Shown here piece by piece: positions 4,399 through 61,939 of a stretch of 64,000 nt of DNA. The notes beneath the pieces are model-generated. The model did not search any database. It saw only the letters and a list, made by a program, of their open reading frames with translations, and was not told where the DNA came from. The position numbers and the translations under genes are program-made. Each line of letters starts with the position of its first letter. Within the stretch, counting starts at the first letter, position 1. This DNA comes from a virus. The stretch lies in the IMG/VR virus record IMGVR_UViG_3300045988_136451, one strand, 5' to 3'.

Positions 4399-5135
4399 CT
4401 ACACTCCCTGCTGCTCCATCATCCGCATAAGGCCCTCCATGGTGTCGGACGTGATGCACACGTCGTCCGCCTCCTGCGACTTGCGCCATTGGCGCATCTC
4501 AATCGACTTCTGGTAGCTGTCCGGGTGCTCGTAGGAAAGCCAGAAGTCCTTGTCCTCCCTATTATCGAGGAGTTCGCGCGCCCGTTCAAGACGCTTGGCG
4601 ATGTCGAGCGCCGTGATCTGCACGACGTTCAGGTCTCCTTCGAGCATCCGCCGATGATAGGCCTGCTGGCACTGCGAGAAGGCGAGCGCGACACCTCGCG
4701 GCAGCTCGTCCTCGCTGCCAGTCAGGCCGATTATTTTTTTAGCGCGCCCGCCACCTCGGCGCACGACCTGCTCATGGCCTTGTACTCGTCGTAAAGGAAC
4801 TCGACGACCGTGGCGTACCAGTTCTTCATCTGCTCCGCCTTGGTCGCGATGGGGTCTACCTCCGGCTGTATGCCGCCGAGCATCGACTGGCCGTCAACGC
4901 TCTGCACCGCCGCCGCGACGGTGTAGAGCTTCAGAGCGCTTATCTCGTTGCGGCAACCCACGTACTCGCGCGTGAGCTGCCCCACGCGCAGCTCCTCGCC
5001 CTGCGTGAGCGTCTTCAGCGCGATCTTGTGCCCCGCGTACTCAACGGTCTTCGTCATGGCCCCGACGTAAAGCAGCCCTAGGAAGGGCTGCTTGTATTCT
5101 TCGGGGAAGACCTCGCCGATAGCTTTCTCGGCCAT
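4399..5135 (-). CDS. Tail assembly chaperone G-T fusion produced by programmed -1 frameshift at A7 (slip site 4734..4740)
   Basis: The G frame ends CTA AAA AAA TAA. The -1 frame reads GCT AAA AAA ATA ATC and continues as the 121-aa track ORF 4399..4764 (RAKKIIGLTGSEDE...). This overlap is the conserved dsDNA-phage G/GT arrangement. Confidence 0.5.
4731..5135 (-). CDS. Tail assembly chaperone (G-like, 134 aa)
   Basis: Start adjusted to MAEKAIGEV at 5135, preceded by a GGGAGGA ribosome-binding site. The listed upstream extension is Arg/His-rich shadow sequence. The gene lies between tail tube and tape measure genes and ends in an A7 slippery run. Confidence 0.55.
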   Translation of the reverse strand: MAEKAIGEVFPEEYKQPFLGLLYVGAMTKTVEYAGHKIALKTLTQGEELRVGQLTREYVGCRNEISALKLYTVAAAVQSVDGQSMLGGIQPEVDPIATKAEQMKNWYATVVEFLYDEYKAMSRSCAEVAGALKK

Positions 5136-12062: not shown

Positions 12063-12090
12063 TTGACAGGCCGTGCCCCCCCCCATAACG
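12063..12090 (+). promoter_or_regulatory. Orphan poly-C promoter-like element (TTGACA, 7 nt, C9 tract 12076..12084)
   Basis: Same TTGAC(A/T)-N7-C9 architecture as the four array promoters at 50.5-52.1 kb. No plus-strand ORF follows, and the shared terminator lies about 55 nt downstream. Confidence 0.45.
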
Positions 12091-12139
12091 GTTCCTTCGG
12101 GCGGCCAGATCAACATAGTCAGGCTCCCGACACCGGCGT

Positions 12140-12170
12140 AAAAAAAAGAACCCCTCTCGCGAGGGGTTCT
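12140..12170 (-). terminator. Rho-independent terminator downstream of the major capsid gene
   Basis: Hairpin GAACCCCTCTCGCGAGGGGTTC followed on the minus strand by T8. A 33-nt identical copy lies downstream of the endolysin gene at 52715..52746. Confidence 0.7.
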
Positions 12171-45014: not shown

Positions 45015-46238
45015 CTATTTCTTCCACGGCGGCACCGCCTCCTCCTCCGCCTTGAAGTTGTACACCGGTCGCATGACCTGCACAACGTCCACCGTGTCGG
45101 CCACGCTCTCGATTATTTTATCGGCATCCTTGTACGCGCCGGGTGCCTCGTCGAGCGTCGAGGAGCCTATGCACGAAGACCAAACGCCGTCCATCTGCTC
45201 GCGGTAGTCCTTGACGCGGAGGCTCCGCTTCGCCTTCGCGCGGGACATCTTGCGCCCGGCCCCGTGCGGGGCAGACCAGTTGTAGTCCTCGTTGCCCTTC
45301 CCGATGCCGATGACGCAGCCCTTCGCCATGTTGAGCGGGATGATGACCTTCTGGCCCTCGTACGCCGCTATAGCGCCCTTGCGGATGATGCGGTTCGCCG
45401 TATCGACGTAGTTGTGCGTCGAGGAGACCATATCGTCCCAGCCGCCCCATCCCATGCCGGAAAATATCTCGCGCGCCATCGTCTCGCGGTTGGCCGACGC
45501 GTACATCTGGCAGAAGTCGCAGTCGTGAAGGTACTCTTCGAGCAGCCTGCCTTCGGCCCATGCCAGCTCCTTGCCGACCGAATGCTCGCGCTGTATGCCG
45601 TTCATCGTTTGCAGCACGTAGCCGATAAGCTCCTGCTTGCCGTCGGCCTTCAGGCGCTCTATGAAGCCCTCCTTCAGGTACCCGGTCGATTGGATGCCGA
45701 CGCGGGAAAGCTCCTCGTGCGCCGCCTTCTGGTACACGCCGCACACCTGCGAGCCGAGGTTGCGCGAGCCGGAATGGATGACCAGCCACAGGTTGCCGTC
45801 CATGTCCTCGTCGATCTCGATGAAGTGGTTGCCGCCTCCGAGCGTCCCCACCGACCTCTTGATTCGGTCGAGGTCGTGCAGGCGGTCGATGCAGGCGAGG
45901 TCGTCCCATCCGAACCAGAAGTCCTGCTGCTCGTTTTCGCGCCAGCTCATGCCGGACGGTATGCGCTCGCGCACCACGTCGTCGAGCGTCTGGAAGTCCA
46001 CGCGCCTCTTGCCCACGAGGTAGGCGTTCACGCCGCACGATATGTCAACGCCGACGACGTTGGGTATGACGGCATCGCCGAACGTTGACGTGAGGCCCAC
46101 CACGCATCCGATGCCAGCGTGGGCATCGGGCATGACGCGTATGCGCTGCCCCTTGAACGGTCGGAGCGCCGCAAGCTCCTCGACCTGCCTGCGCGCCTCG
46201 TCCTCGATCTCCTCCGCGTAGATTTTAACGTCTTCCAT
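45015..46238 (-). CDS. rtcB: RtcB family 3'-phosphate RNA ligase (407 aa)
   Basis: Carries the RtcB signature motifs MPDAHAGIG, GGGNHFIEIDED, IHSGSRNLG and NWSAPHGAGR. Confidence 0.75.
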   Translation of the reverse strand: MEDVKIYAEEIEDEARRQVEELAALRPFKGQRIRVMPDAHAGIGCVVGLTSTFGDAVIPNVVGVDISCGVNAYLVGKRRVDFQTLDDVVRERIPSGMSWRENEQQDFWFGWDDLACIDRLHDLDRIKRSVGTLGGGNHFIEIDEDMDGNLWLVIHSGSRNLGSQVCGVYQKAAHEELSRVGIQSTGYLKEGFIERLKADGKQELIGYVLQTMNGIQREHSVGKELAWAEGRLLEEYLHDCDFCQMYASANRETMAREIFSGMGWGGWDDMVSSTHNYVDTANRIIRKGAIAAYEGQKVIIPLNMAKGCVIGIGKGNEDYNWSAPHGAGRKMSRAKAKRSLRVKDYREQMDGVWSSCIGSSTLDEAPGAYKDADKIIESVADTVDVVQVMRPVYNFKAEEEAVPPWKK

Positions 46239-46240
46239 CT

Positions 46241-46621
46241 TCAGCCTTCCTCATCGCAGTAATAGCGCCAGCGCTCCTCGATGCACTCGACGCTGACGAC
46301 CTTCGGCGACAGGCGGTAGTCCTCCATGTCCTCCATGTAGGCGACGGCGAGCGGCCTCCTGCCGAAAAGCTCCTTCGACATGACCGCCGTCAGCATGAGG
46401 CCGTACGGCACCCCGCCCTCCTTGCCGACGGCGTGCGAGCCGAACGCGTCGAGCAGCCGTTCAACGTCCCTCTTGAAGAACGTCGCCTCCTCCATGGGCA
46501 GCGACATGCCGAACATCGGGGAGTACCCGGCTCCGGGCCTCGCCTCGACGCAGTACATGAACGCGAGGTCTCCCGTCTCCGTCGCCTGAAGCTCTACGCA
46601 CGCGCGCAGCCTCCGCTCCAT
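46241..46621 (-). CDS. Hypothetical protein adjacent to rtcB (126 aa)
   Basis: Track ORF with no recognisable archease motif. Confidence 0.3.
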   Translation of the reverse strand: MERRLRACVELQATETGDLAFMYCVEARPGAGYSPMFGMSLPMEEATFFKRDVERLLDAFGSHAVGKEGGVPYGLMLTAVMSKELFGRRPLAVAYMEDMEDYRLSPKVVSVECIEERWRYYCDEEG

Positions 46622-46697
46622 AAAGCCTCCTTCCAGAACCTTTGACGACAGTCTACCATGTAAGAGAAGAAATTAAAAGAAGAATTAAGAATAAAAC

Positions 46698-46725
46698 GGG
46701 AACCCCCGCCGAAGCGGGGGTTCCG
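46698..46725 (-). terminator. Hairpin terminator downstream of the tail fibre gene
   Basis: Hairpin GGGAACCCCCGCCGAAGCGGGGGTTCC, followed on the minus strand by a T-rich tract. Confidence 0.5.
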
Positions 46726-46732
46726 GGAGGCC

Positions 46733-49700
46733 CTACGGCTCGATTATGAGAACCGCGTTCGCCGGTGCCGACGACGCGGCACCCACGTATATCTCCTTGG
46801 CCGTCGATGCCAAGGTGGTCGCCGTCACGGCGGTGACGTTGATCGAGATGTTGCCCGACAGGTCTCCGGCTCCGGAGCCTGCCGCGTTGCCGGTGAGCGA
46901 GAACGTCCGGGAAGCCGACAGCTTGCCAGCGCTCGTGGCGCTCGTGGCGGTGGTCGCGTTGCCCGACAGCGCGCCGTAGAACGTCGTGGCGTACATCGCC
47001 AAGAACTTGTTCGCGCTCGTGCCGACGGTCTTGGTGTTCGTGGCGGACGACAGGATGTTCCCAACGCCCGACATGTCGCCGGAGACGGCGGCGCTGCCGT
47101 CGAAGCTCTGCCCCCATAGGCCGCGCGCCGTGGCGAGCTTCGTTGCCGTCCCGGCGTTGCCGCTCACGGTCTTCTGCACGGGGTGCACGTGGTCTTCCCT
47201 CGCCCACTTCGTCGCCGTGCCGACCGCCGCCGTGGCCGCGACCTTCGGCGCTGCGGTTCCAGCGTAGGGAACGCCGACCGTCGTCCACGCCTCCGCGACC
47301 GTCGTGCCGCCGAAGCCGCCCTTCGACACCGCCACCGGGCTGATGAAGTCGGTTCCGCCGTTGGGCTGAACGTCTCCGACCACCACGAACTGCGTGCCGT
47401 CGTACATGACGAGGTACGGCACGGAGAGCCTGAAGTAGCCAGCCGTCGGGACGGCCACCGGCGTGCCGGTCTGGGTGAAGCGGCGTATGTTCTTCGCGCC
47501 GAGCGAGTTGATGTTGAGCGTCACGTCAACGCTCGCCGACGTGACCGACGGGACGATCACCAGCAAGCGCCCCTTCAGGCCCGCGAGCGTCGTTGCCCAC
47601 GGAGGCCCGGAGAGCGTGCCCGTGTACGCCGACGACGTTCCGGCGAGCGTGACGACGGGCGCGGACATGCGACCGTCAACCGTGTTGAGCGATATGAGGC
47701 CGTTCACGCTCGCGGACGCGACCGGTATCGCGGCAACCGTGTCCGAGACGATCTGGCGCTGGTCTGCGTCAGTCCAGTAGTCAACGCCGCGCACGGGCGT
47801 GTCGCCCTTCGGGATGCCGAACTCCAACTGCGCCGCGTTCGACGTTCCGGCGTTCACGACGGTCGCTTGGCTCCCCGGCGAGAGGGTCGTGGTTGACTTG
47901 ACGACGACGGTTGCGGCAGCGCCGTCAGCGCCCTTAGCGCCGGTCGCGCCCCTGTCGCCCTGCTCGCCCTTGTCGCCCTTCGCGCCGGTCTGGCCGACGG
48001 GGATGCCGAAGTCGAAGATCGCGTTCGACGACGTTCCGGCGTTCGTGACCGTGGGCGTGCTCCCCGGCGCGAGCTGCCGCACCGTTCCGACGGCGACGGT
48101 CGCCGCCAAGCCCGTGTCGCCCTTCGCCCCGGGGTCGCCCTTCTCGCCCTTAGCGCCGGTCGCGCCCTGCGGTATGCCGAAGTTGAACTGCGCCGCCGAT
48201 GCCGTTCCGACGTTCGCGACCGTGGCGCTGCTTCCCGGAGGCAGGGTCGTGACCGTGCCGACGGCGACGGTCGCGGCGGTTCCCGGTATGCCTTGGTCGC
48301 CCTTTGCTCCCGTGTCGCCCTTCGGCCCCTTCTCGCCGGTGTCGCCCTTGTCTCCCTTCGCGCCAGTGCCCCCCTTCGGGATGCCGAAGTCGAAGCGCGC
48401 TGCGGTCGCCGTGCCGACGTTGGACACCGTGGGCTGCGAGCCTGCGGGGAGGCTCGTCACGGTGCCGACCGTTATGGTCGCGGCGGTGCCGGGAACGCCC
48501 TGCGCGCCCTGCGGTATGGCGAAGTCGAGGATTGCCGCGTTCTCGGTGCCCTTGTTCACGACGGATGCGGGAGACCCGGCAGCGCCGGTCGTGACCGTGC
48601 CCACGTCTATCGTGGCCGCTTGGCCCTGCGCGCCCTGCGGGCCGCGCTCTCCCTGCGGGCCGGGGTCGCCCTTCTCGCCTTGCACGCCCTGCCCCCCTTG
48701 CGGGCCGCGCTCTCCCTGCTTGCCCTCGACCAAGCCGAAGTCGAGCACCGCCGCGCTCGCCGTGCCCTTGTTCTCGACAGTCGGCGAGCTTCCCGGAGGC
48801 AGCGACGTGACCTTGCCCACCGACACCGTTGCAGCGTCTCCCTTGTCGCCCTTCGCCCCCGTGTCGCCCTTGGCACCGGTGTCGCCCTTGTCGCCCTTGG
48901 GGATGGTGAAGTCGAGCACGGCGGAAGAGGACGTTCCGGAGTTGACGATCTGGGCCTCGCTCCCGGCAGCGCCGGTGGTGACCGTGCCGACCGACACCGT
49001 TGCAGCCTGTCCCGGTATTCCTTGGTCGCCCTGCGGGCCTTGGTCGCCCTGCTGGCCTTGGATTGGGCCGACGTTCTGCCAGTCGTTCGTGCTCCCGGCG
49101 ACCCACACCCACAAGTCGCCCTTGATCGTGTAAGCGTCGCCGACCTCGCCCGTGGGATGGGCCGCCTTCAGCTCCTCGTAGGAGCCGTACGTTCCTTTGA
49201 TGACGACGCTCGTGCCGTCGGCACCCTTGTCGCCCGGGTCGCCCTTGTCCCCCTTGGGGCCTTGGGGTATGCCGAAGTTGAACAGCGCCGCGTTCGGCGT
49301 GCCCGCGTTGTCAACGGTCGCTTTGCTTCCAGCAGGGAGCGTCGTCGTGGTTCCAACGGTGATCGTGGCCGCTTGGCCCTGCTGCCCTTGCGGCCCCGTG
49401 TCCCCCTTCGCGCCCGTCTCGCCCTTCTCGCCCTGAACCAAGCCGAAGTCGAGCACGGCGGAAAGCGACGAGCCGGAGTTCACGACAGTCGGCGAGCTTC
49501 CCGGAGGCAGCGACGTGACCGTGCCGACCGTTACGGTCGCGGCCTGTCCGGGCGCGCCGGTGTCGCCCTTGTCGCCCTTCGCGCCGTCTTGGCCCGCAAG
49601 ACCCTGCGGCCCTCTCTCGCCCTGCATGCCCTGTATGCCCTGCGGGCCTTGGGGTATCGTGAAGTTGAACACCGCGTTCGTGGTGTCGCCGGAGTTCGTG

Positions 49701-50485
49701 ACCTGCGCTGCCGTGCCGGGGTCTCCGGTCGTGACCGTGCCCACCGCGATGGTGGCGGCTATGCCGGGGTCTCCCTTGTCGCCCTGCTCGCCCTGCAAGC
49801 CGCGCGGCCCAGTCGCTCCCGTGTCGCCCTTCGGGCCTTGCTCGCCCCTCTCCCCTTGCTCGCCCTTCGGGCCTTGCTCTCCCTGCGGCCCCCTCTCGCC
49901 CTGTATGCCCTGCGGCCCCTGCTCGCCCTGCTCGCCCTTGTCGCCCTTCGCGCCCTTGGGCAGGAAGAAGTTCAGAACGGGGTTCTGCACCGTGCCGGTG
50001 ATCGTCACCTGCGGGGTGTCCGACGTTGCGACGGTTCCGATGGTGAAGTGCGGTATCAGCTCGCCGCTGTCGAGGCGGTCGTTTATCTCCTTGATCTGCG
50101 CGTATATCTGGGCGAGAATCTTGTTGAACTCGTCCTGCGTCTGGTTCACCTCGTAAAGGTGGGCGCGCATGATGCGGCGGGCGAACGCGATGTAGGCCAC
50201 GCGGTAGAACTTCGTGTTGTAGTCGTAGGCGAGGAAGTCGCCCATGATGTCGGTTATGGTCTCGTCGGCTGGGTTGACCACGTAGTGGTCGCTGATCTCG
50301 TTCGCCTTGATGTCAACCTGCTGCTTCTGGTCTGGGTCGAAAATCTCGTCGATCTTCGCGCACAGCGCCGCGAGGTCGGTCACTTCCAAGACCTCGTACA
50401 AAGCGCCCGTGAGGGTGTTCGTAATCCAGTCGCCGAGATTGACGGCTGTTCCGTTCTTGTCTACCAGCATCTCGCGCTCCTTCAA
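46733..50485 (-). CDS. Collagen-like modular tail fibre protein (1250 aa)
   Basis: The N-terminal region is globular. After it come about 12 tandem units of G-X-Y collagen triplets followed by a roughly 35-aa module [38 protein letters not shown]. The C-terminal region is Ala/Thr/Ser/Gly-rich. Confidence 0.7.
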
Positions 50486-50545
50486 TCCGATGTTGCCTCC
50501 ATTGTATGAAAAAGGCGGGGTTCGCGCTATGGAGCTGGCGCGCCC

Positions 50546-50576
50546 TTGACATACGTTGCCCCCCCCCAGTTACGAT
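50546..50576 (+). promoter_or_regulatory. Array promoter 1: TTGACA, 19-bp spacer containing C9 (50559..50567), TACGAT
   Basis: Consensus -35 and a TAnnnT -10, but a non-optimal 19-bp spacing because of the C9 tract. Sits 36 nt upstream of ATG 50612. Confidence 0.55.
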
Positions 50577-50611
50577 AGTCCCGAAACGGAGGCTGATGCG
50601 GAGGAGCGGCA

Positions 50612-51052
50612 ATGGCGGTGTTGAAGTATCGAGGTTCGGGCGGAACTATCCAGACCCTCTTGGACGTGACCGGCACGCTGGCGCGCATCGGCGCGTTGGA
50701 GACGAAGACGAACAACCTCCAAACGACCGTCAACGCCCTCAACGCCTCCTCCGGCTGGAAAAGGCTGTCGAAGAACTGCTGGTACAAGAAGGTCGGCCTG
50801 TGGTGCACAGTCCAATGCGACTACATAAGCCTGTCGGCGAGCACGTGGAAGACCCTCGGAACCCTCCCTGCCGGTTACAGGCCGGTGGTCACGGGGCTGA
50901 CCGACGAGGGCAAAGTCGTGTCGGGCGCGGCGTTCCATCGCGGCGAGAACAACATAGGCCTAATCGAGATTAACGGCTCCGGCGTGGTGAGCATGTACGC
51001 GACCGTCGCGAGCGATTATTGGTCTGCGAACATCGTGTTCCCCTGCGCTTGA
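50612..51052 (+). CDS. Array paralog 1 (146 aa): conserved N-terminal helix and variable C-terminal beta-rich domain
   Basis: Starts MAVLKYRGSGGTIQTLLDVTGTLARIGALETK, shared with paralogs 3 and 4. The C-terminal domain is unique and Trp/Cys-rich. Confidence 0.6.
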   Translation: MAVLKYRGSGGTIQTLLDVTGTLARIGALETKTNNLQTTVNALNASSGWKRLSKNCWYKKVGLWCTVQCDYISLSASTWKTLGTLPAGYRPVVTGLTDEGKVVSGAAFHRGENNIGLIEINGSGVVSMYATVASDYWSANIVFPCA

Positions 51053-51079
51053 CAACGCTTGCCCCCCCCCAGTTACCAT
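51049..51079 (+). promoter_or_regulatory. Array promoter 2: TTGACA, 19-bp spacer containing C9 (51062..51070), TACCAT
   Basis: Same architecture as promoter 1. Confidence 0.55.
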
Positions 51080-51106
51080 TGCCGGGTAAACGGACGGAGG
51101 GCTGCA

Positions 51107-51607
51107 ATGGCGAAGTTGAAGTACCGCAAAGGCTCTGACATATTCGAGATTTTCGACACGGACGACATCAAGGCGCTCCAAACGAAGGTGGACGAGGTGC
51201 CGAGGCTCCCGACGTTCGGCTCGACCTCCGGCAACTGGCCCTTCGGAGTGGTCTACTGGAACGTCAGCGCCGACAAGAAGCGCCTGTCGCTCCATGGGAA
51301 CATCTACTTCGACAGCTGCGGCGACGCGTGGAGCGCCATGAAGGCGATACCGGGCGGAGCGTCGAACGAGTGGGGCTTGCAGGTCGCAACTCCGCTCGGA
51401 GCGCAATCCAAAGCCCTCTGGATACCTGCCGTCGGCTTCTCCACCACGAACTCCACCATATCGGCCCAGAACTTCGGTCGCCTTACCATGAAGATAGGCA
51501 CCGACGGCTACTGCTACGTATTCCCGACGACGACAAAGCCGGAGGGCGACGGCCCGTTCTCGTGCTTCATAGATTGCTGGTACATGAGCATAGCGGACTA
51601 CGCTTGA
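51107..51607 (+). CDS. Array paralog 2 (166 aa)
   Basis: ATG at 51107 (MAKLKYRKGSDIFEIFDTDDIKALQTKVDEV). The track ORF 51059..51607 includes an upstream extension. Confidence 0.55.
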   Translation: MAKLKYRKGSDIFEIFDTDDIKALQTKVDEVPRLPTFGSTSGNWPFGVVYWNVSADKKRLSLHGNIYFDSCGDAWSAMKAIPGGASNEWGLQVATPLGAQSKALWIPAVGFSTTNSTISAQNFGRLTMKIGTDGYCYVFPTTTKPEGDGPFSCFIDCWYMSIADYA

Positions 51608-51634
51608 CATTTTCTGCCCCCCCCCTGTTACGAT
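51604..51634 (+). promoter_or_regulatory. Array promoter 3: TTGACA, 19-bp spacer containing C9 (51617..51625), TACGAT
   Basis: Same architecture as promoter 1. Confidence 0.55.
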
Positions 51635-51659
51635 CTTCGCCGATGAAAGGAAGGGTCGA

Positions 51660-52103
51660 ATGGCAATCATCAAGTACAGGGGCAGCGGCGGCGTTGTCGA
51701 ACTGCTCGACGTGGGGGCGCTGCTGGGCCGGGTGAGCGCCTTGGAAACGAAGGTCGCGTCGTTCGACCGGGCGACATCGGGGATATGGAAATACGAGAAG
51801 CGCTCCGACGGCACCTGCGTCTGCGAGGGCCAGCAGACGCGCACGGTCAACATAGAGAACATATATTCGGGGAACATCTACTACGGCGACTTCGCCGCCG
51901 TCTCGTTCCCCAGCGGGCTGTTCACCGCAGTGCCGGACGTTCGCGCGACGATTCAATCGGCACCAGCGACCGTGTGGGTCGCGACGGCCTCGAACTCGAA
52001 GCCGTCAACGTCGTCAACGCAGACGGTGCGCCTGCTGTCGGGCGGCCCGGAGACGAGCATATCCGTCACGGTCTCCTACCGCGCGGTCGGTCGCTGGAAG
52101 TAG
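51660..52103 (+). CDS. Array paralog 3 (147 aa)
   Basis: Starts MAIIKYRGSGGVVELLDVGALLGRVSALETKVASFDRA and then has a unique C-terminal domain. Confidence 0.6.
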   Translation: MAIIKYRGSGGVVELLDVGALLGRVSALETKVASFDRATSGIWKYEKRSDGTCVCEGQQTRTVNIENIYSGNIYYGDFAAVSFPSGLFTAVPDVRATIQSAPATVWVATASNSKPSTSSTQTVRLLSGGPETSISVTVSYRAVGRWK

Positions 52104-52104
52104 C

Positions 52105-52135
52105 CTTGACTTTCCGTGCCCCCCCCCTGTTACGC
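52105..52135 (+). promoter_or_regulatory. Array promoter 4: TTGACT, 19-bp spacer containing C9 (52118..52126), TACGCT
   Basis: Same architecture as promoter 1. Confidence 0.5.
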
Positions 52136-52164
52136 TTTCCCGAAACACTCGGAAGGGAGAGGGA

Positions 52165-52638
52165 ATGGCGAAGCTGAAGTACAGGGGCACGGGCGGCGTG
52201 GTCGAGCTTCTTGACATCTCGAACGTTCTCAACCGCCTGTCGTCGCTCGAAGCCAAGATGACGGCGGTCGAGACAAAGCTGACGGTCAAGTCCGACGGTT
52301 TATGGCGTTATCTCGTCCTCGGCTCCTTCGTCATCGGATGGCGCACCGACCGTTTCGTCGTGCCGCAATGGAACTCGTGGGGCAATCTCTGGGAAAGCTC
52401 CGCAAAGCTCTCTTCGGTCATCTATCCGGGCGGCTATCAGGGGAAGTTCTCGCAAGTCGCCCTGTTCTGCAACGCCAAGAACGTCGGAGAGGTCACATCG
52501 TGCGGCGTGGAGTTCGAGGACAGCTCGACCCCGGACGTTCTCAACAAGTTTCCCAACGTGTACCTGCTGCGCCCGAACAACGCGGGCACGAACGTGACGT
52601 ACGACGTGTACCGCATGTTCATAGGTCAGCTCAAATGA
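52165..52638 (+). CDS. Array paralog 4 (157 aa)
   Basis: Starts MAKLKYRGTGGVVELLDISNVLNRLSSLEAKMTAVETKL and then has a unique C-terminal domain. Confidence 0.6.
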   Translation: MAKLKYRGTGGVVELLDISNVLNRLSSLEAKMTAVETKLTVKSDGLWRYLVLGSFVIGWRTDRFVVPQWNSWGNLWESSAKLSSVIYPGGYQGKFSQVALFCNAKNVGEVTSCGVEFEDSSTPDVLNKFPNVYLLRPNNAGTNVTYDVYRMFIGQLK

Positions 52639-52714
52639 CGGCTTGACAACCTCCGCCCCAGCTGAACAGAACGTCGTACGCGACCGAAGTGCCCGTCAAC
52701 TTGATTGGCGGCGT

Positions 52715-52746
52715 AAAAAAAAGAACCCCTCTCGCGAGGGGTTCTT
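52715..52746. terminator. Bidirectional terminator shared by the paralog array and the endolysin gene
   Basis: AAAAAAAAGAACCCCTCTCGCGAGGGGTTCTTC, identical over 33 nt to the terminator at 12140..12170. Confidence 0.65.
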
Positions 52747-52760
52747 CATTCGCTGCGGCT

Positions 52761-53930
52761 TTACAGGTAGATGACCTGACCGGGGTAGATCACGTTCGGG
52801 TCGGAGATGCCGTTCTTCGCGGCGAGGCCCATGTAGTTGGAACCCCAGCCGTTGCTCGCGGCGATTGCGGAAAGGTTGTCGCCCTCCCGAACCGTGTAGG
52901 TTCCGCCTCCGCCGACCTCCGCCGCCGCGCCGCCGTTGGTCAGGGCGATGTTGCCGATGTCGATTGCTGCGGTCACCTGACCGTCTCGACCGATCACCGC
53001 GCGGCGACCGTCAAGCTCCATCACGACGTAGGTGCCGTGGACGGCGAGCGGGGTGCCGTTCTCGTCAACGGGCGTGACGACCTTGACAAGCGAGCCGACC
53101 GAGATTGTCGGGGAGCCGCCGGAGCCGCCGCCGACCTTCGCGAGGTTGGAAGCGTCGATGGCCGCAGTGACCTGACCGCCGCGACCGATCACTATGCGGT
53201 TGCCGGACACCTCCATCACCTCGTATGTGCCGGAGGTCGCGAGCGACGTGCCGTTCACATCGACGGGGTTGGTCACGGTCACGATGTCGCCGACGCTGAA
53301 GGAGGCCGACGGCGCTGGCTCCGGGGAAGGCTCCGGCGGGACGTAGCTGCCGCCGTGAATCTCCTGCGGGAAGTCCCTGTAGCACTCGTTCGCGTCCAGA
53401 GGGCCGATGCCGCCGATGTAGGCGGTCGAGGTGTACTGCCAGATGTCCGCCGTGCCGTTGTAGGACAGGTCGGCACCGTACTCGGCGACCCAAGCGGTGT
53501 AGGGCAGGATGCGCATGTCCTGCGCGTTCGCGTTGTAGCGCCCGGTGTACCAGCCGAACCAGTACCCGGCGGCCTCGATCTGCGGGCCGACGACCTCGCA
53601 CGCGCGACGGTAGAACCATTCCAGACCCGGCTCCTCAACGTCGAGGTAGGCGGGGAAGCCCATCTCGGACGGGTCGGGGAGCAGGCGCAGCATGTGGGCC
53701 GCCTCGCTGTTCGCCATGGAATCGTTCGACGCGTAAGAGTACAGGTACACGCCGAAGGGGATGCCGAGGCGCTTGCACTCGGACATGTTGCGATGGTACT
53801 GCCGGTCGTCTTGGTTCGCGTAGTCGCTGCCGTAGCCGCAGGACAGGATTGCCCCGTCGATTCGGCCCACGAGGGCATCCCAGTTGATGGTGCCCTGATG
53901 GTGCGATACGTCGATGAGCGTCATTGTCAT
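52761..53930 (-). CDS. Endolysin: GH25 muramidase, two roughly 55-aa binding repeats and a C-terminal LysM (389 aa)
   Basis: N-terminus LIDVSHHQGTINWDALVGRIDGAILSCGYG. Two tandem repeats xSVGxxVxVxxPVDxNGTxLAxxGTYxVMExxGxRxVIGRxGQVTAAID. C-terminal LysM (TYTVREGDNLSAIA...GISDPNVIYPGQVIYL). Confidence 0.75.
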   Translation of the reverse strand: MTMTLIDVSHHQGTINWDALVGRIDGAILSCGYGSDYANQDDRQYHRNMSECKRLGIPFGVYLYSYASNDSMANSEAAHMLRLLPDPSEMGFPAYLDVEEPGLEWFYRRACEVVGPQIEAAGYWFGWYTGRYNANAQDMRILPYTAWVAEYGADLSYNGTADIWQYTSTAYIGGIGPLDANECYRDFPQEIHGGSYVPPEPSPEPAPSASFSVGDIVTVTNPVDVNGTSLATSGTYEVMEVSGNRIVIGRGGQVTAAIDASNLAKVGGGSGGSPTISVGSLVKVVTPVDENGTPLAVHGTYVVMELDGRRAVIGRDGQVTAAIDIGNIALTNGGAAAEVGGGGTYTVREGDNLSAIAASNGWGSNYMGLAAKNGISDPNVIYPGQVIYL

Positions 53931-53994
53931 GGTGTTTCTCTCCTTTCGCTCGATGGGGACATTCTACCACCGAGGAGGGAGGAGGGACACGCGG

Positions 53995-54177
53995 TCACGA
54001 AACGGGCAGGTAGTCCTTCAGGACTTCCTTCGTGTTCGCGTCGCGCCTGACGATGACGGGCTGCGGGATGCCGTTGACGATCTTCACGCCGAAGACGACC
54101 TCCTGCACGGGGTGCGCGGTGTCGGCGGTCTTGTATCCGCTCGAAGCAACAACGTCGATGGGGTCTGCGGTCGCCAT
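53995..54177 (-). CDS. Hypothetical small protein (60 aa)
   Basis: Track ORF. Confidence 0.25.
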   Translation of the reverse strand: MATADPIDVVASSGYKTADTAHPVQEVVFGVKIVNGIPQPVIVRRDANTKEVLKDYLPVS

Positions 54178-54181
54178 CGCC

Positions 54182-54676
54182 CTACCAAGCGTCGGCGTGG
54201 ACTTCGACGGCCATGCCGTCCACCGTCTTGATTCTAAGGCCGTCCACGGCCTCCCAGCCGCCCGAAGGAACCGTTATGGGGGCGCAGGCCGCCTTGCGGT
54301 AAACCATGGCCTTGGAGACGTTCAGGGAGGCTCTGGCGTATATGCGCGTGCCCGCGTACTCGCCAAGGTATCTCTCCTCGTCGTCGAGAGCGTCCACCGC
54401 CTCGGACATCGCCCTCTCGACATCGGTCTCCCCGAGCGGGTTGTCGCCAACCCCCTCCAAGCCGAGCATCTGGTACATCTGCTCGCGCTCGATCACTTGG
54501 ATGCGGTCGTCGTACTCGTCGCGACCGTGGTAGAGGACGCGGAAGTCGTCGTCTCCCTCTTCGAGGACTTCGAGCGACCGGTACTTGCCTCCGGGAAGGT
54601 AGTAGGGGTTTGCGAAGTCGGAAGGCTCGAACACGGCCCCCGGCTTGATCTCGTCGTACGAAACGGGCGTAGCCAT
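54182..54676 (-). CDS. Hypothetical protein (164 aa)
   Basis: Track ORF. Confidence 0.3.
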   Translation of the reverse strand: MATPVSYDEIKPGAVFEPSDFANPYYLPGGKYRSLEVLEEGDDDFRVLYHGRDEYDDRIQVIEREQMYQMLGLEGVGDNPLGETDVERAMSEAVDALDDEERYLGEYAGTRIYARASLNVSKAMVYRKAACAPITVPSGGWEAVDGLRIKTVDGMAVEVHADAW

Positions 54677-61621: not shown

Positions 61622-61915
61622 ATGATCTGCCAGTTGGAGGCCATGCACGACGCGAGGAAGTCGTTCTACGGGAAGGCGCTCGTGGAATCGGGGGGGGGCA
61701 CCCTGACGCTGTACGGCTACGGCGCTAAGGTGGCCGAGACGCAGGGGCAGGGCCGCATCGCGCTCTACCCGGACGCGGACTACAGCCCGACCACGCGCAG
61801 GCACGTGAAGGAGTTCGCCAAGCAGCAGGCCGGGAAGTCCATATCGACCGAGGAGCTGCGCGCCGTCGTCGATGGGCGCATGCGCTTCGAGGACGCGGGC
61901 AAGCCGCTCGCGTAA
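61622..61915 (+). CDS. Hypothetical protein (97 aa) with an in-frame G9 homopolymer at 61690..61698
   Basis: ATG at 61622 preceded by GGAAGGAG. The G9 run encodes SGGG. Confidence 0.4.
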   Translation: MICQLEAMHDARKSFYGKALVESGGGTLTLYGYGAKVAETQGQGRIALYPDADYSPTTRRHVKEFAKQQAGKSISTEELRAVVDGRMRFEDAGKPLA

Positions 61916-61916
61916 C

Positions 61917-61939
61917 GGGGGGGGGCTTCGGCCCCCCCT
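61917..61939. terminator. Bidirectional hairpin G9-CTTCGG-C8
   Basis: Lies between the convergent genes 61622..61915 (plus) and 61939..62691 (minus). Confidence 0.5.

Follow-up and report, generated by a model that had tools for sequence, protein, structure and literature searches.

Four tandem cassettes between a tail fibre gene and an endolysin gene

The stretch of viral DNA studied here (IMG/VR record IMGVR_UViG_3300045988_136451; 64,000 nucleotides (nt), hereafter the window) carries an array of four tandem plus-strand genes, each preceded by its own promoter-like element in which a run of nine C residues lies between a -35-like and a -10-like hexamer. In agreement with a preliminary description of this region, the genes encode proteins of 146, 166, 147 and 157 amino acids (aa) and lie behind elements of the form TTGAC(A/T)-N7-C9-(A/T)GT-TAC(G/C)(A/C)T, with four matches against 0.01 expected. 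The array and its neighbours comprise the following features:

46733..50485, minus strand: collagen-like tail fibre gene, an open reading frame (ORF) of 1250 aa, divergent from the array
50546..50576, plus strand: element 1, with TTGACA at 50546-50551, N7, C9 at 50559-50567, AGT and TACGAT at 50571-50576; spacer of 19 base pairs (bp)
50612..51052, plus strand: gene 1, 146 aa, receptor-binding protein
51049..51079, plus strand: element 2, with TTGACA, N7, C9 at 51062-51070, AGT and TACCAT
51107..51607, plus strand: gene 2, 166 aa, cassette protein whose N-terminal anchor has diverged more
51604..51634, plus strand: element 3, with TTGACA, N7, C9 at 51617-51625, TGT and TACGAT
51660..52103, plus strand: gene 3, 147 aa, tail-fibre-tip-like protein
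52106..52136, plus strand: element 4, with TTGACT, N7, C9 at 52119-52127, TGT and TACGCT
52165..52638, plus strand: gene 4, 157 aa, cassette protein with the common N-terminal anchor
52643..52670, plus strand: decayed fifth promoter copy, TTGACA-acctccg-CCCC-agc-TGAACA, with no gene behind it
52720..52747, no strand assigned: hairpin that closes the array, a strong terminator of the endolysin on the minus strand, with a T8 tail, and a weak one on the plus strand
52761..53930, minus strand: GH25 and LysM endolysin, convergent with the array

In all four window elements 19 bp separate the -35-like hexamer from the -10-like one, and each tract stops 44-51 nt short of the start codon, i.e. outside coding sequence. 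We found that the pattern TTGAC-N8-C9-N-GTTAC has exactly four matches in the 64 kilobases (kb) (at 50546, 51049, 51604 and 52106), a number reached in 0/100 shuffles, and a repeat search recovers the same elements as a four-copy family of 35 nt with spacings of 503, 555 and 502 nt. The stop codons of genes 1 and 2 fall within the following TTGACA (the TGA of element 2 is the stop of gene 1), and TGn stands directly before the -10 hexamer in elements 3 and 4. Two placements in the preliminary description are corrected here: its fourth tract (52118..52126) lies one base to the right, and the endolysin, upstream of which it had put the array, is encoded on the minus strand and is not downstream in the same direction.

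The phage and its relatives

The window region is 99.4% identical to Eggerthella phage LE2-3 (MW679026.1), recorded as a 112-kb circular genome isolated on Eggerthella lenta DSM 2243, and the annotation of LE2-3 includes a tail sheath and a large baseplate module. The tail fibre gene is LE23_40 in this genome, annotated as 'putative tail fiber protein 1', and Pfam Collagen and Phage_fiber_2 were matched on its orthologues. Our literature search found no paper on LE2-3; according to a 2026 preprint (PMC13131767), PMBT5 was the sole earlier published isolation of an E. lenta phage, and the E. lenta phage KL11 treated there is an unrelated 44-kb siphovirus. The same preprint reports that E. lenta phase-varies its capsule loci and so escapes another phage. 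Relatives of the window are common in human gut metagenomes, with one window baseplate protein listed in 900 index blocks.

Loci for comparison were retrieved through the DNA pattern, homologues of the four cassette proteins and the neighbouring endolysin, and they form four lineages whose orthologues are only ~52-65% identical. The array site is identical in all of them, between the fibre gene and the endolysin, and the number of cassettes and the hexamer spacing are as follows:

Lineage A (window, LE2-3 and ~15 others): 2-5 cassettes, mostly 4-5; spacing 18-21 bp, mode 19, with one cassette variant at 15 bp
Lineage B (L011-L013): 5 cassettes; spacing 14-17 bp
Lineage C (L014-L019): 1 cassette; spacing 18 bp
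Lineage D (L023-L027): 7 cassettes; spacing 12-16 bp

In the single-cassette lineage, L014 also carries an IS200/IS605-type element (480-1996; Y1 transposase and TnpB-like OrfB) ~110 bp past the fibre gene, on its 3' side.

An uninterrupted C tract is conserved in every promoter-like element

We tabulated 105 elements across lineages A-D, and all 105 possess TTGAC(N), an uninterrupted tract of C6-C11 and a -10 hexamer that matches TATAAT at 3-5/6 positions; a simple repeat between predicted -35 and -10 hexamers, the hallmark of promoter-spacer phase variation, is thus present in each. The match is 3-4/6 for the window hexamers (TACGAT, TACCAT, TACGCT) and 5/6 for the majority of lineage-B and lineage-D cassettes (TATGAT, TACAAT, TAGAAT, TATCAT). 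The -10 hexamer lies 19-41 nt upstream of the start codon, and a Shine-Dalgarno sequence stands before each start. Divergence has been free in the 0-7 nt that separate TTGAC from the tract and in the 2-4 nt from there to the -10 hexamer, whereas the tract itself has not diverged, with a mode of C9 in lineages A, B and D and of C8 in lineage C. Because the flanking bases differ, the C9 tract sits in spacers of differing length from lineage to lineage (12-18 bp outside lineage A), and therefore it is the tract that is conserved and not a 17-bp target. By inspection of the table, only a weak trend was seen for flanking bases to offset tract length and so hold the spacing. Within lineage A, element 2 of L020 and L021 has N3 in place of N7, which gives a 15-bp spacer with C9 unchanged.

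Some spacings agree with use as promoters. The spacer is 18 bp in 6/6 contigs of the single-cassette lineage and at exactly one cassette of several lineage-A genomes, among them the cultured LE2-3, and in lineage B, where flanks are short, the long tracts (C10-C11) reach 16-17 bp.

Apart from tracts of this kind, LE2-3 avoids G/C runs of such length. Its run lengths are bimodal, with 119 runs of 5 nt, 5 of 6 nt, none of 7 nt and 16 of 8-10 nt, and the window has seven G/C runs longer than 7 nt, every one exactly 9 nt. Two further copies of the element have no gene behind them and were missed in the preliminary description. The decayed copy after gene 4 (at 52643) has shrunk to C4 and lost its -10 hexamer, and is kept only in the lineage of the window, being absent from lineages B, C and D. 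The other is an orphan, TTGACA-ggccgtg-C9 without a -10 hexamer (12063..12084, plus strand), between the terminator of the major capsid gene and the next gene; together with the hairpin that follows it (12136-12170) it is homologous to 52643-52760, and its tract is C10 in LE2-3. This orphan may be a recombination relic or the start of a short transcript. Considering the uninterrupted tracts, the bimodal G/C runs and the decay of the gene-less copy, conservation is a stronger argument for selection than variation in length.

Tract lengths differ between near-clonal genomes

The preliminary description had expected the C tracts to vary in length, and among closely related genomes they do. Pairwise comparisons gave the following substitutions and tract differences:

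L020 and L021: 0 substitutions in 2788 bp; C8 versus C9, the sole difference
L023 and L025: 0 substitutions in 5052 bp; C6 versus C7, the sole difference
L023 and L024: 1 substitution in 8519 bp; C8 versus C9 and one single-base deletion in a cassette ORF
L011 and L012: 93 substitutions in 12.4 kb; 4/4 small indels within tracts
L012 and L013: 17 substitutions in 8.7 kb; 4/4 small indels within tracts
Window and L047: 1 substitution in ~7.7 kb; C9 versus C11 (element 4 tract)
Window and L043: 0 substitutions in ~10 kb; no tract difference

By our tally over near-clonal pairs, about 1 in 7 tract comparisons differs, and substitutions amount to ~5 per 100,000 sites. Tract length therefore changes far faster than its surroundings, as seen in consensus assemblies of pairs with 0-1 substitutions over 2.8-8.5 kb. 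Since near-clonal genomes often differ in tract length alone, the tracts are conserved yet unstable. In lineage A, all of ~65 tracts are C8-C11, including ~7 of C10, one of C11 and three of C8, and no C7 was seen among them. Element 1 is C8 in L004 and L020 and C9 in the remaining lineage-A genomes, while element 3 is the most variable tract of the lineage (C8 once, in LE2-3; C9 four times; C10 three times). A C6 run within coding sequence was invariant (7/7).

The cassette proteins share an anchor and differ in their heads

All four proteins have ~35-50 N-terminal residues in common, and beyond these BLAST finds nothing. As noted in the preliminary description, the N-termini are related, with 54% identity over 37 aa between genes 1 and 3, 47% over 49 aa between genes 3 and 4, and a weaker relation for gene 2; the motif (L/I)KYRxGxxxxxxLLD is common to at least 10 head types across lineages. 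In the C-terminal parts of the proteins, called rich in Trp, Tyr and Cys in that description, these residues together account for 8-14%. The parts had also been called unrelated, which holds in that BLAST detects no similarity among them, but not in kind, given that genes 1 and 3 both model as or match receptor-binding or fibre-tip domains.

The gene 1 protein, modelled with 13 orthologues (predicted local distance difference test (pLDDT) score 86.7), is predicted to form a β-hairpin (residues 3-18), a helix (19-47) and a β-sandwich (50-145), i.e. a β-sandwich head after a helical neck as in BppL of phage TP901-1. In BFVD it matches minor tail proteins of actinobacteriophages and receptor-binding proteins from phages of Lactococcus and Leuconostoc. 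Adenovirus and reovirus knobs come lower among the matches of the model. Gene 3 matches phrog_2712 (tail fiber), the sole PHROG match among the four proteins, and the LE2-3 annotation has 'structural protein' for gene 1 and 'tail fiber protein' for gene 3. Genes 1 and 3 are receptor-binding or fibre-tip proteins. No Pfam family was found for any of the four, a PDB sequence search with them gave no match, and genes 2 and 4 have neither a Pfam nor a PHROG match; these two are placed in the cassette family, as putative members, by their N-terminus. The common anchor, the matches of genes 1 and 3 and the N-terminal placement of genes 2 and 4 therefore suggest that the cassettes are alternative receptor-binding or fibre-tip proteins, in line with the adhesin tips that the preliminary description had envisaged.

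Three proteins were compared with the cassette N-terminus as candidate docking partners, and none was accepted as such. The collagen-like fibre gave no match between its N-terminus and the profile of the cassette N-termini (expect value (E) 0.073), and the Gp10_C-type paralogue LE23_97 has no significant match (E 0.017). The N-terminus of LE23_99, in the baseplate module, is cassette-like (MYLKYRNSSG), a weak match over 16 residues (hhalign E 3.5e-4).

Cassettes are gained, lost and exchanged

One and the same locus carries from 1 to 7 cassettes among relatives, and two lineage-A genomes (L048 and L049) have two only. The extra cassette of L002 is joined at the tract, with the upstream N7 derived from the left neighbour and the -10 hexamer from the new gene. 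In L020 and L044 gene 3 has been swapped for this same extra cassette type, and the L020 joint is also at the tract. That junctions map here is partly automatic, because the tract is the longest sequence common to the units. Several database proteins (P0001-P0003, P0007 and P0025) combine halves of different genes among 1-4 (in one, gene 2 residues 1-121 are followed by gene 4 residues 26-157), and these may be recombinants or metagenome misassemblies across the common N-terminus. A cassette can also be inactivated within its coding sequence: relative to L024, L023 has lost one A at 4750-4755 (CCACCCC to CCCCCC), and the cassette 4 ORF is reduced from 119 to 67 aa in L023 and L025.

A proposed promoter-level switch and its alternatives

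Taken together, these observations suggest a model in which the array consists of independent transcription units, four here and 1-7 in relatives, each of which would encode a small, probably trimeric receptor-binding protein with the common hairpin-helix anchor and a differing C-terminal head. Each gene would have its own host-type promoter (a TTGACA-like -35 and a TAnnAT -10), with the hexamers working as such and the spacer made up mostly of the homopolymeric C tract. We propose that the tract slips during replication of the phage DNA and shifts the -35/-10 distance by 1-2 bp at a time, and that these shifts would therefore reset the strength of each promoter heritably and reversibly. If tract length changes transcription in this way, the altered promoter strengths would change the mix of receptor-binding proteins that vie for one common docking site on progeny virions. 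The four window promoters would be in the modal C9/19-bp state, which is probably weak, with 18-bp variants probably stronger, and the likely role would be bet-hedging against a host with a variable surface. With its near-consensus hexamers, short leader and spacer filled by a hypermutable homopolymer, the layout matches that of bacterial promoter-spacer phase variation, which we consider the best explanation. The case at the level of sequence is strong; the link from tract length to expression is one that we infer entirely. On balance we give about an even chance to the array being a set of promoter-level contingency loci that tune alternative receptor-binding proteins.

Several of our own results weigh against this switch. 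Spacers cluster at 14-16 and 18-20 bp and only 2/105 are of 17 bp, a distribution that a simple 17-bp optimum does not explain; judged by the textbook rule, the majority of cassettes would therefore be weak or off in most genomes. The modal state may be weak by design, with slippage dynamics setting the mode. The preliminary description had taken C9/19 bp as OFF and the loss of 1-2 C, back to 17 bp, as ON, and that proposal is not supported: besides the scarcity of 17-bp spacers and the lack of C7 in lineage A, expansions exceed contractions and C9 gives 14-15 bp in lineages B and D. The commonest lineage-A genotype is C9 at all four promoters, which fits C9 as a preferred working state, and with modal C9 kept while spacing differs by 5 bp between lineages, the tract itself rather than the spacing could be what matters. 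The G8-G9 runs found in LE2-3 just upstream of three replication-module start codons cannot act through spacing at all. Moreover, a control run in the endolysin terminator (52716-52723) is A8 in 10 and A9 in 5 of 15 relatives; because it varies as often as the C tracts, length variation is common to all long homopolymers, or stems from sequencing and assembly, and by itself it is no evidence of use. All tract lengths compared here were, in addition, read from consensus assemblies and not from reads.

Another explanation that we considered treats the ~C9 tract as a fixed cis-element, a binding site or structural spacer for a phage-encoded or host factor, with activator-dependent promoters (the preliminary description had also envisaged a phage-encoded activator, which is possible), TTGAC not necessarily a -35 and length changes incidental around a preferred C9. 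It would account for the modal C9 of all multi-cassette lineages across spacings of 12-21 bp, for all-C9 as the commonest genotype and the missing C7 in the window's lineage, and for C9/G9 runs where spacing is irrelevant (the orphan tract at 12076, a terminator hairpin at 61917 and the three LE2-3 start codons). The phage also has almost no other TTGACN-N16-18-TAnnnT sites, and it evidently uses non-host signals, with its own repeated palindrome TCGATTATTTAATCGA elsewhere. However, no candidate factor emerged, a binding site would neither need a pure homopolymer nor tolerate C6-C11, the near-consensus hexamers are kept in every cassette, and the single-cassette lineage stands at a conventional 18 bp; we regard a fixed element as rather unlikely, though the likeliest of the rivals. 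A different role, in which the promoter, C tract and N-terminal coding sequence mainly serve as short homology for cassette exchange between co-infecting phages and the tract is a recombination junction, agrees with the presence of 1, 4, 5 or 7 cassettes at one locus, with the joints at the tract in L002 and L020, and with the existence of fused gene 1-4 proteins. Junctions in a tandem array nevertheless necessarily map to sequence common to the units, the fusions may be misassemblies, and the conserved hexamers and pure homopolymer would be left unexplained. Exchange is also compatible with a switch and does not exclude it; as an explanation in its own right we judge it improbable.

Still a little less probable, in our estimation, is that the tracts have no function, having been copied with the promoter at each cassette duplication and then left to neutral homopolymer dynamics, with length differences due to sequencing or assembly error. 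The variable A8/A9 run, the reliance on consensus assemblies and the persistence of the C9/C10 orphan all speak for such neutrality. They stand against 105/105 tracts that are uninterrupted though their flanks have fully diverged, against bimodal G/C runs with none of length 7 in LE2-3, and against the decay to C4 of the gene-less copy at the end of the array; differences of 2-3 nt (C6 versus C9, C9 versus C11) moreover exceed the typical plus-or-minus-one consensus error.

Other mechanisms were tried and rejected. An RNA-level role, in which read-through transcripts would have their ribosome-binding site paired with the C tract, is not supported by the four intergenic folds, which are no better than shuffles (z -1.5 to +0.6), and the only match of an Rfam search was sub-threshold and fell on the terminator. 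Between 46000 and 54500 only weak inverted matches were found (72-84% complementary, 18-35 nt), none bracketing a cassette, and apart from the promoter and N-terminal homology the interval has no long near-identical direct repeat pair; the LE2-3 annotation lists no recombinase near the array and no reverse transcriptase. This bears out the earlier view that neither an invertible segment (shufflon) nor a diversity-generating retroelement is involved.

Comparison with known systems

Repeats between the -35 and -10 hexamers underlie phase variation in several bacteria, including porA and opc of Neisseria meningitidis, hifA/B of Haemophilus influenzae, vlp of Mycoplasma hyorhinis and fim of Bordetella pertussis. 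Like these systems, the array has a homopolymer between -35-like and -10-like hexamers upstream of surface-recognition genes, near-clonal length polymorphism, and several paralogues each with its own tract. It differs in that the carrier is a lytic phage and the products are putative virion receptor-binding proteins, and in that its spacers are almost never 17 bp. A scan of bacterial genomes for TTGAC-N-C9-N-TAnnAT gave at least 120 loci in many phyla, a few of them in Coriobacteriia, which shows only that the design occurs widely. The homopolymer tracts of Bordetella are covered in PMC1891110.

In phages, Sorensen et al. 2021 (cited in PMC12633550) described hypermutable polyG tracts in genes for receptor-binding proteins of Campylobacter Fletchervirus phages. 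Both cases involve G/C homopolymers of 7-11 nt at host-recognition genes that create, or here would create, subpopulations; in contrast, the array tracts lie in promoter spacers outside ORFs and would tune transcription rather than cause frameshifts. Tracts within an ORF, with frameshift, do not occur in the four cassettes and are seen outside the window in LE23_93 and LE23_97. The preprint just cited (PMC12633550) reports contingency loci in coliphages T2/T4 and other phages, mostly short A/T runs inside ORFs that act by frameshift, and finds repeats under-represented in tail fibre genes; the word 'promoter' is absent from it. With the T2/T4 loci the array would share homopolymer slippage during phage replication as a form of bet-hedging.

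The predicted fold recalls BppL (ORF49) of TP901-1 and gp15 of Listeria phage PSA; unlike these, the cassette proteins have no sequence-level match to Pfam or to PDB sequences, the phage encodes a tail sheath where TP901-1 and PSA are siphoviruses, and several paralogues make up a variable array, with a predicted promoter for each. Invertible tail-fibre segments (Gin of Mu, Cin of P1) and diversity-generating retroelements are further examples of programmed diversification of phage host-range determinants. The array, in contrast, has no flanking inverted repeats and no template/variable repeat pair within 46000-54500, and it is the 5' end of the fibre gene, rather than the 3' end, that its cassettes adjoin. 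Our literature search turned up no account of a phage with homopolymer tracts in the promoters of its receptor-binding genes. The parts are known (bacterial promoter-spacer repeats, coding polyG tracts of phages, coding contingency loci of T-even phages), and the switch proposed here would unite the first two of these.

If tract length does set promoter strength, phage host range would be varied by heritable, reversible tuning of transcription, where the known routes are frameshifts, inversions and retroelements. Lysates would then be mixtures of tract genotypes with differing adsorption spectra, and passage on a host variant would enrich specific lengths. It would also show how a common gut phage keeps up with a host that phase-varies its surface, which is relevant to phage-based editing of E. 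lenta, a drug-metabolising bacterium. For genome assembly, the caution is that homopolymer lengths in phages should not be 'polished away'.

Other tracts and motifs in the genome

LE2-3 has a second variable array, of small baseplate paralogues (Pfam Gp10_C), at 70381-74373 (20381-24373 in L029; ~12750-17600 in L031-L040). It ranges from 2 to ~10 copies between relatives and has G7-G10 tracts inside coding sequences whose lengths differ between relatives, and LE23_93 and LE23_97 read as frameshifted past their G tracts. These coding tracts make deliberate G/C slippage at host-recognition genes more credible for this phage, and capsule phase variation in E. lenta fits the host side of a slippage model. 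At present we can only offer as a tentative idea, possible but rather doubtful, that this abundant gut phage plays a two-tier slippage lottery for host range, in which promoter poly-C would set the doses of TP901-1-type receptor-binding proteins, coding polyG would switch the baseplate array, and the resulting virion mixes would track the E. lenta capsule; if true, a transcription-level contingency switch would thereby be described for the first time in a virus.

The G8-G9 runs of the LE2-3 replication module lie 3-6 nt upstream of the starts of DNA polymerase III alpha, LE23_127 and LE23_137, and look like ribosome-binding sites. Two further sites in the window have the same run lengths in LE2-3: a G9 at 61690-61698, which encodes Gly-Gly-Gly in a small plus-strand ORF homologous to LE23_16 (97 aa), and a G9/C7 hairpin at 61917-61938 between convergent genes. 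Lastly, the AT-rich palindrome TCGATTATTTAATCGA, allowing up to 3 mismatches, has ~9 sites in the window against 0.16 expected (among them 12042, 17906, 39098, 39401, 42002, 45109, 56016 and 59965) and none in the cassette array; the phage probably uses it as a promoter or operator motif of its own.

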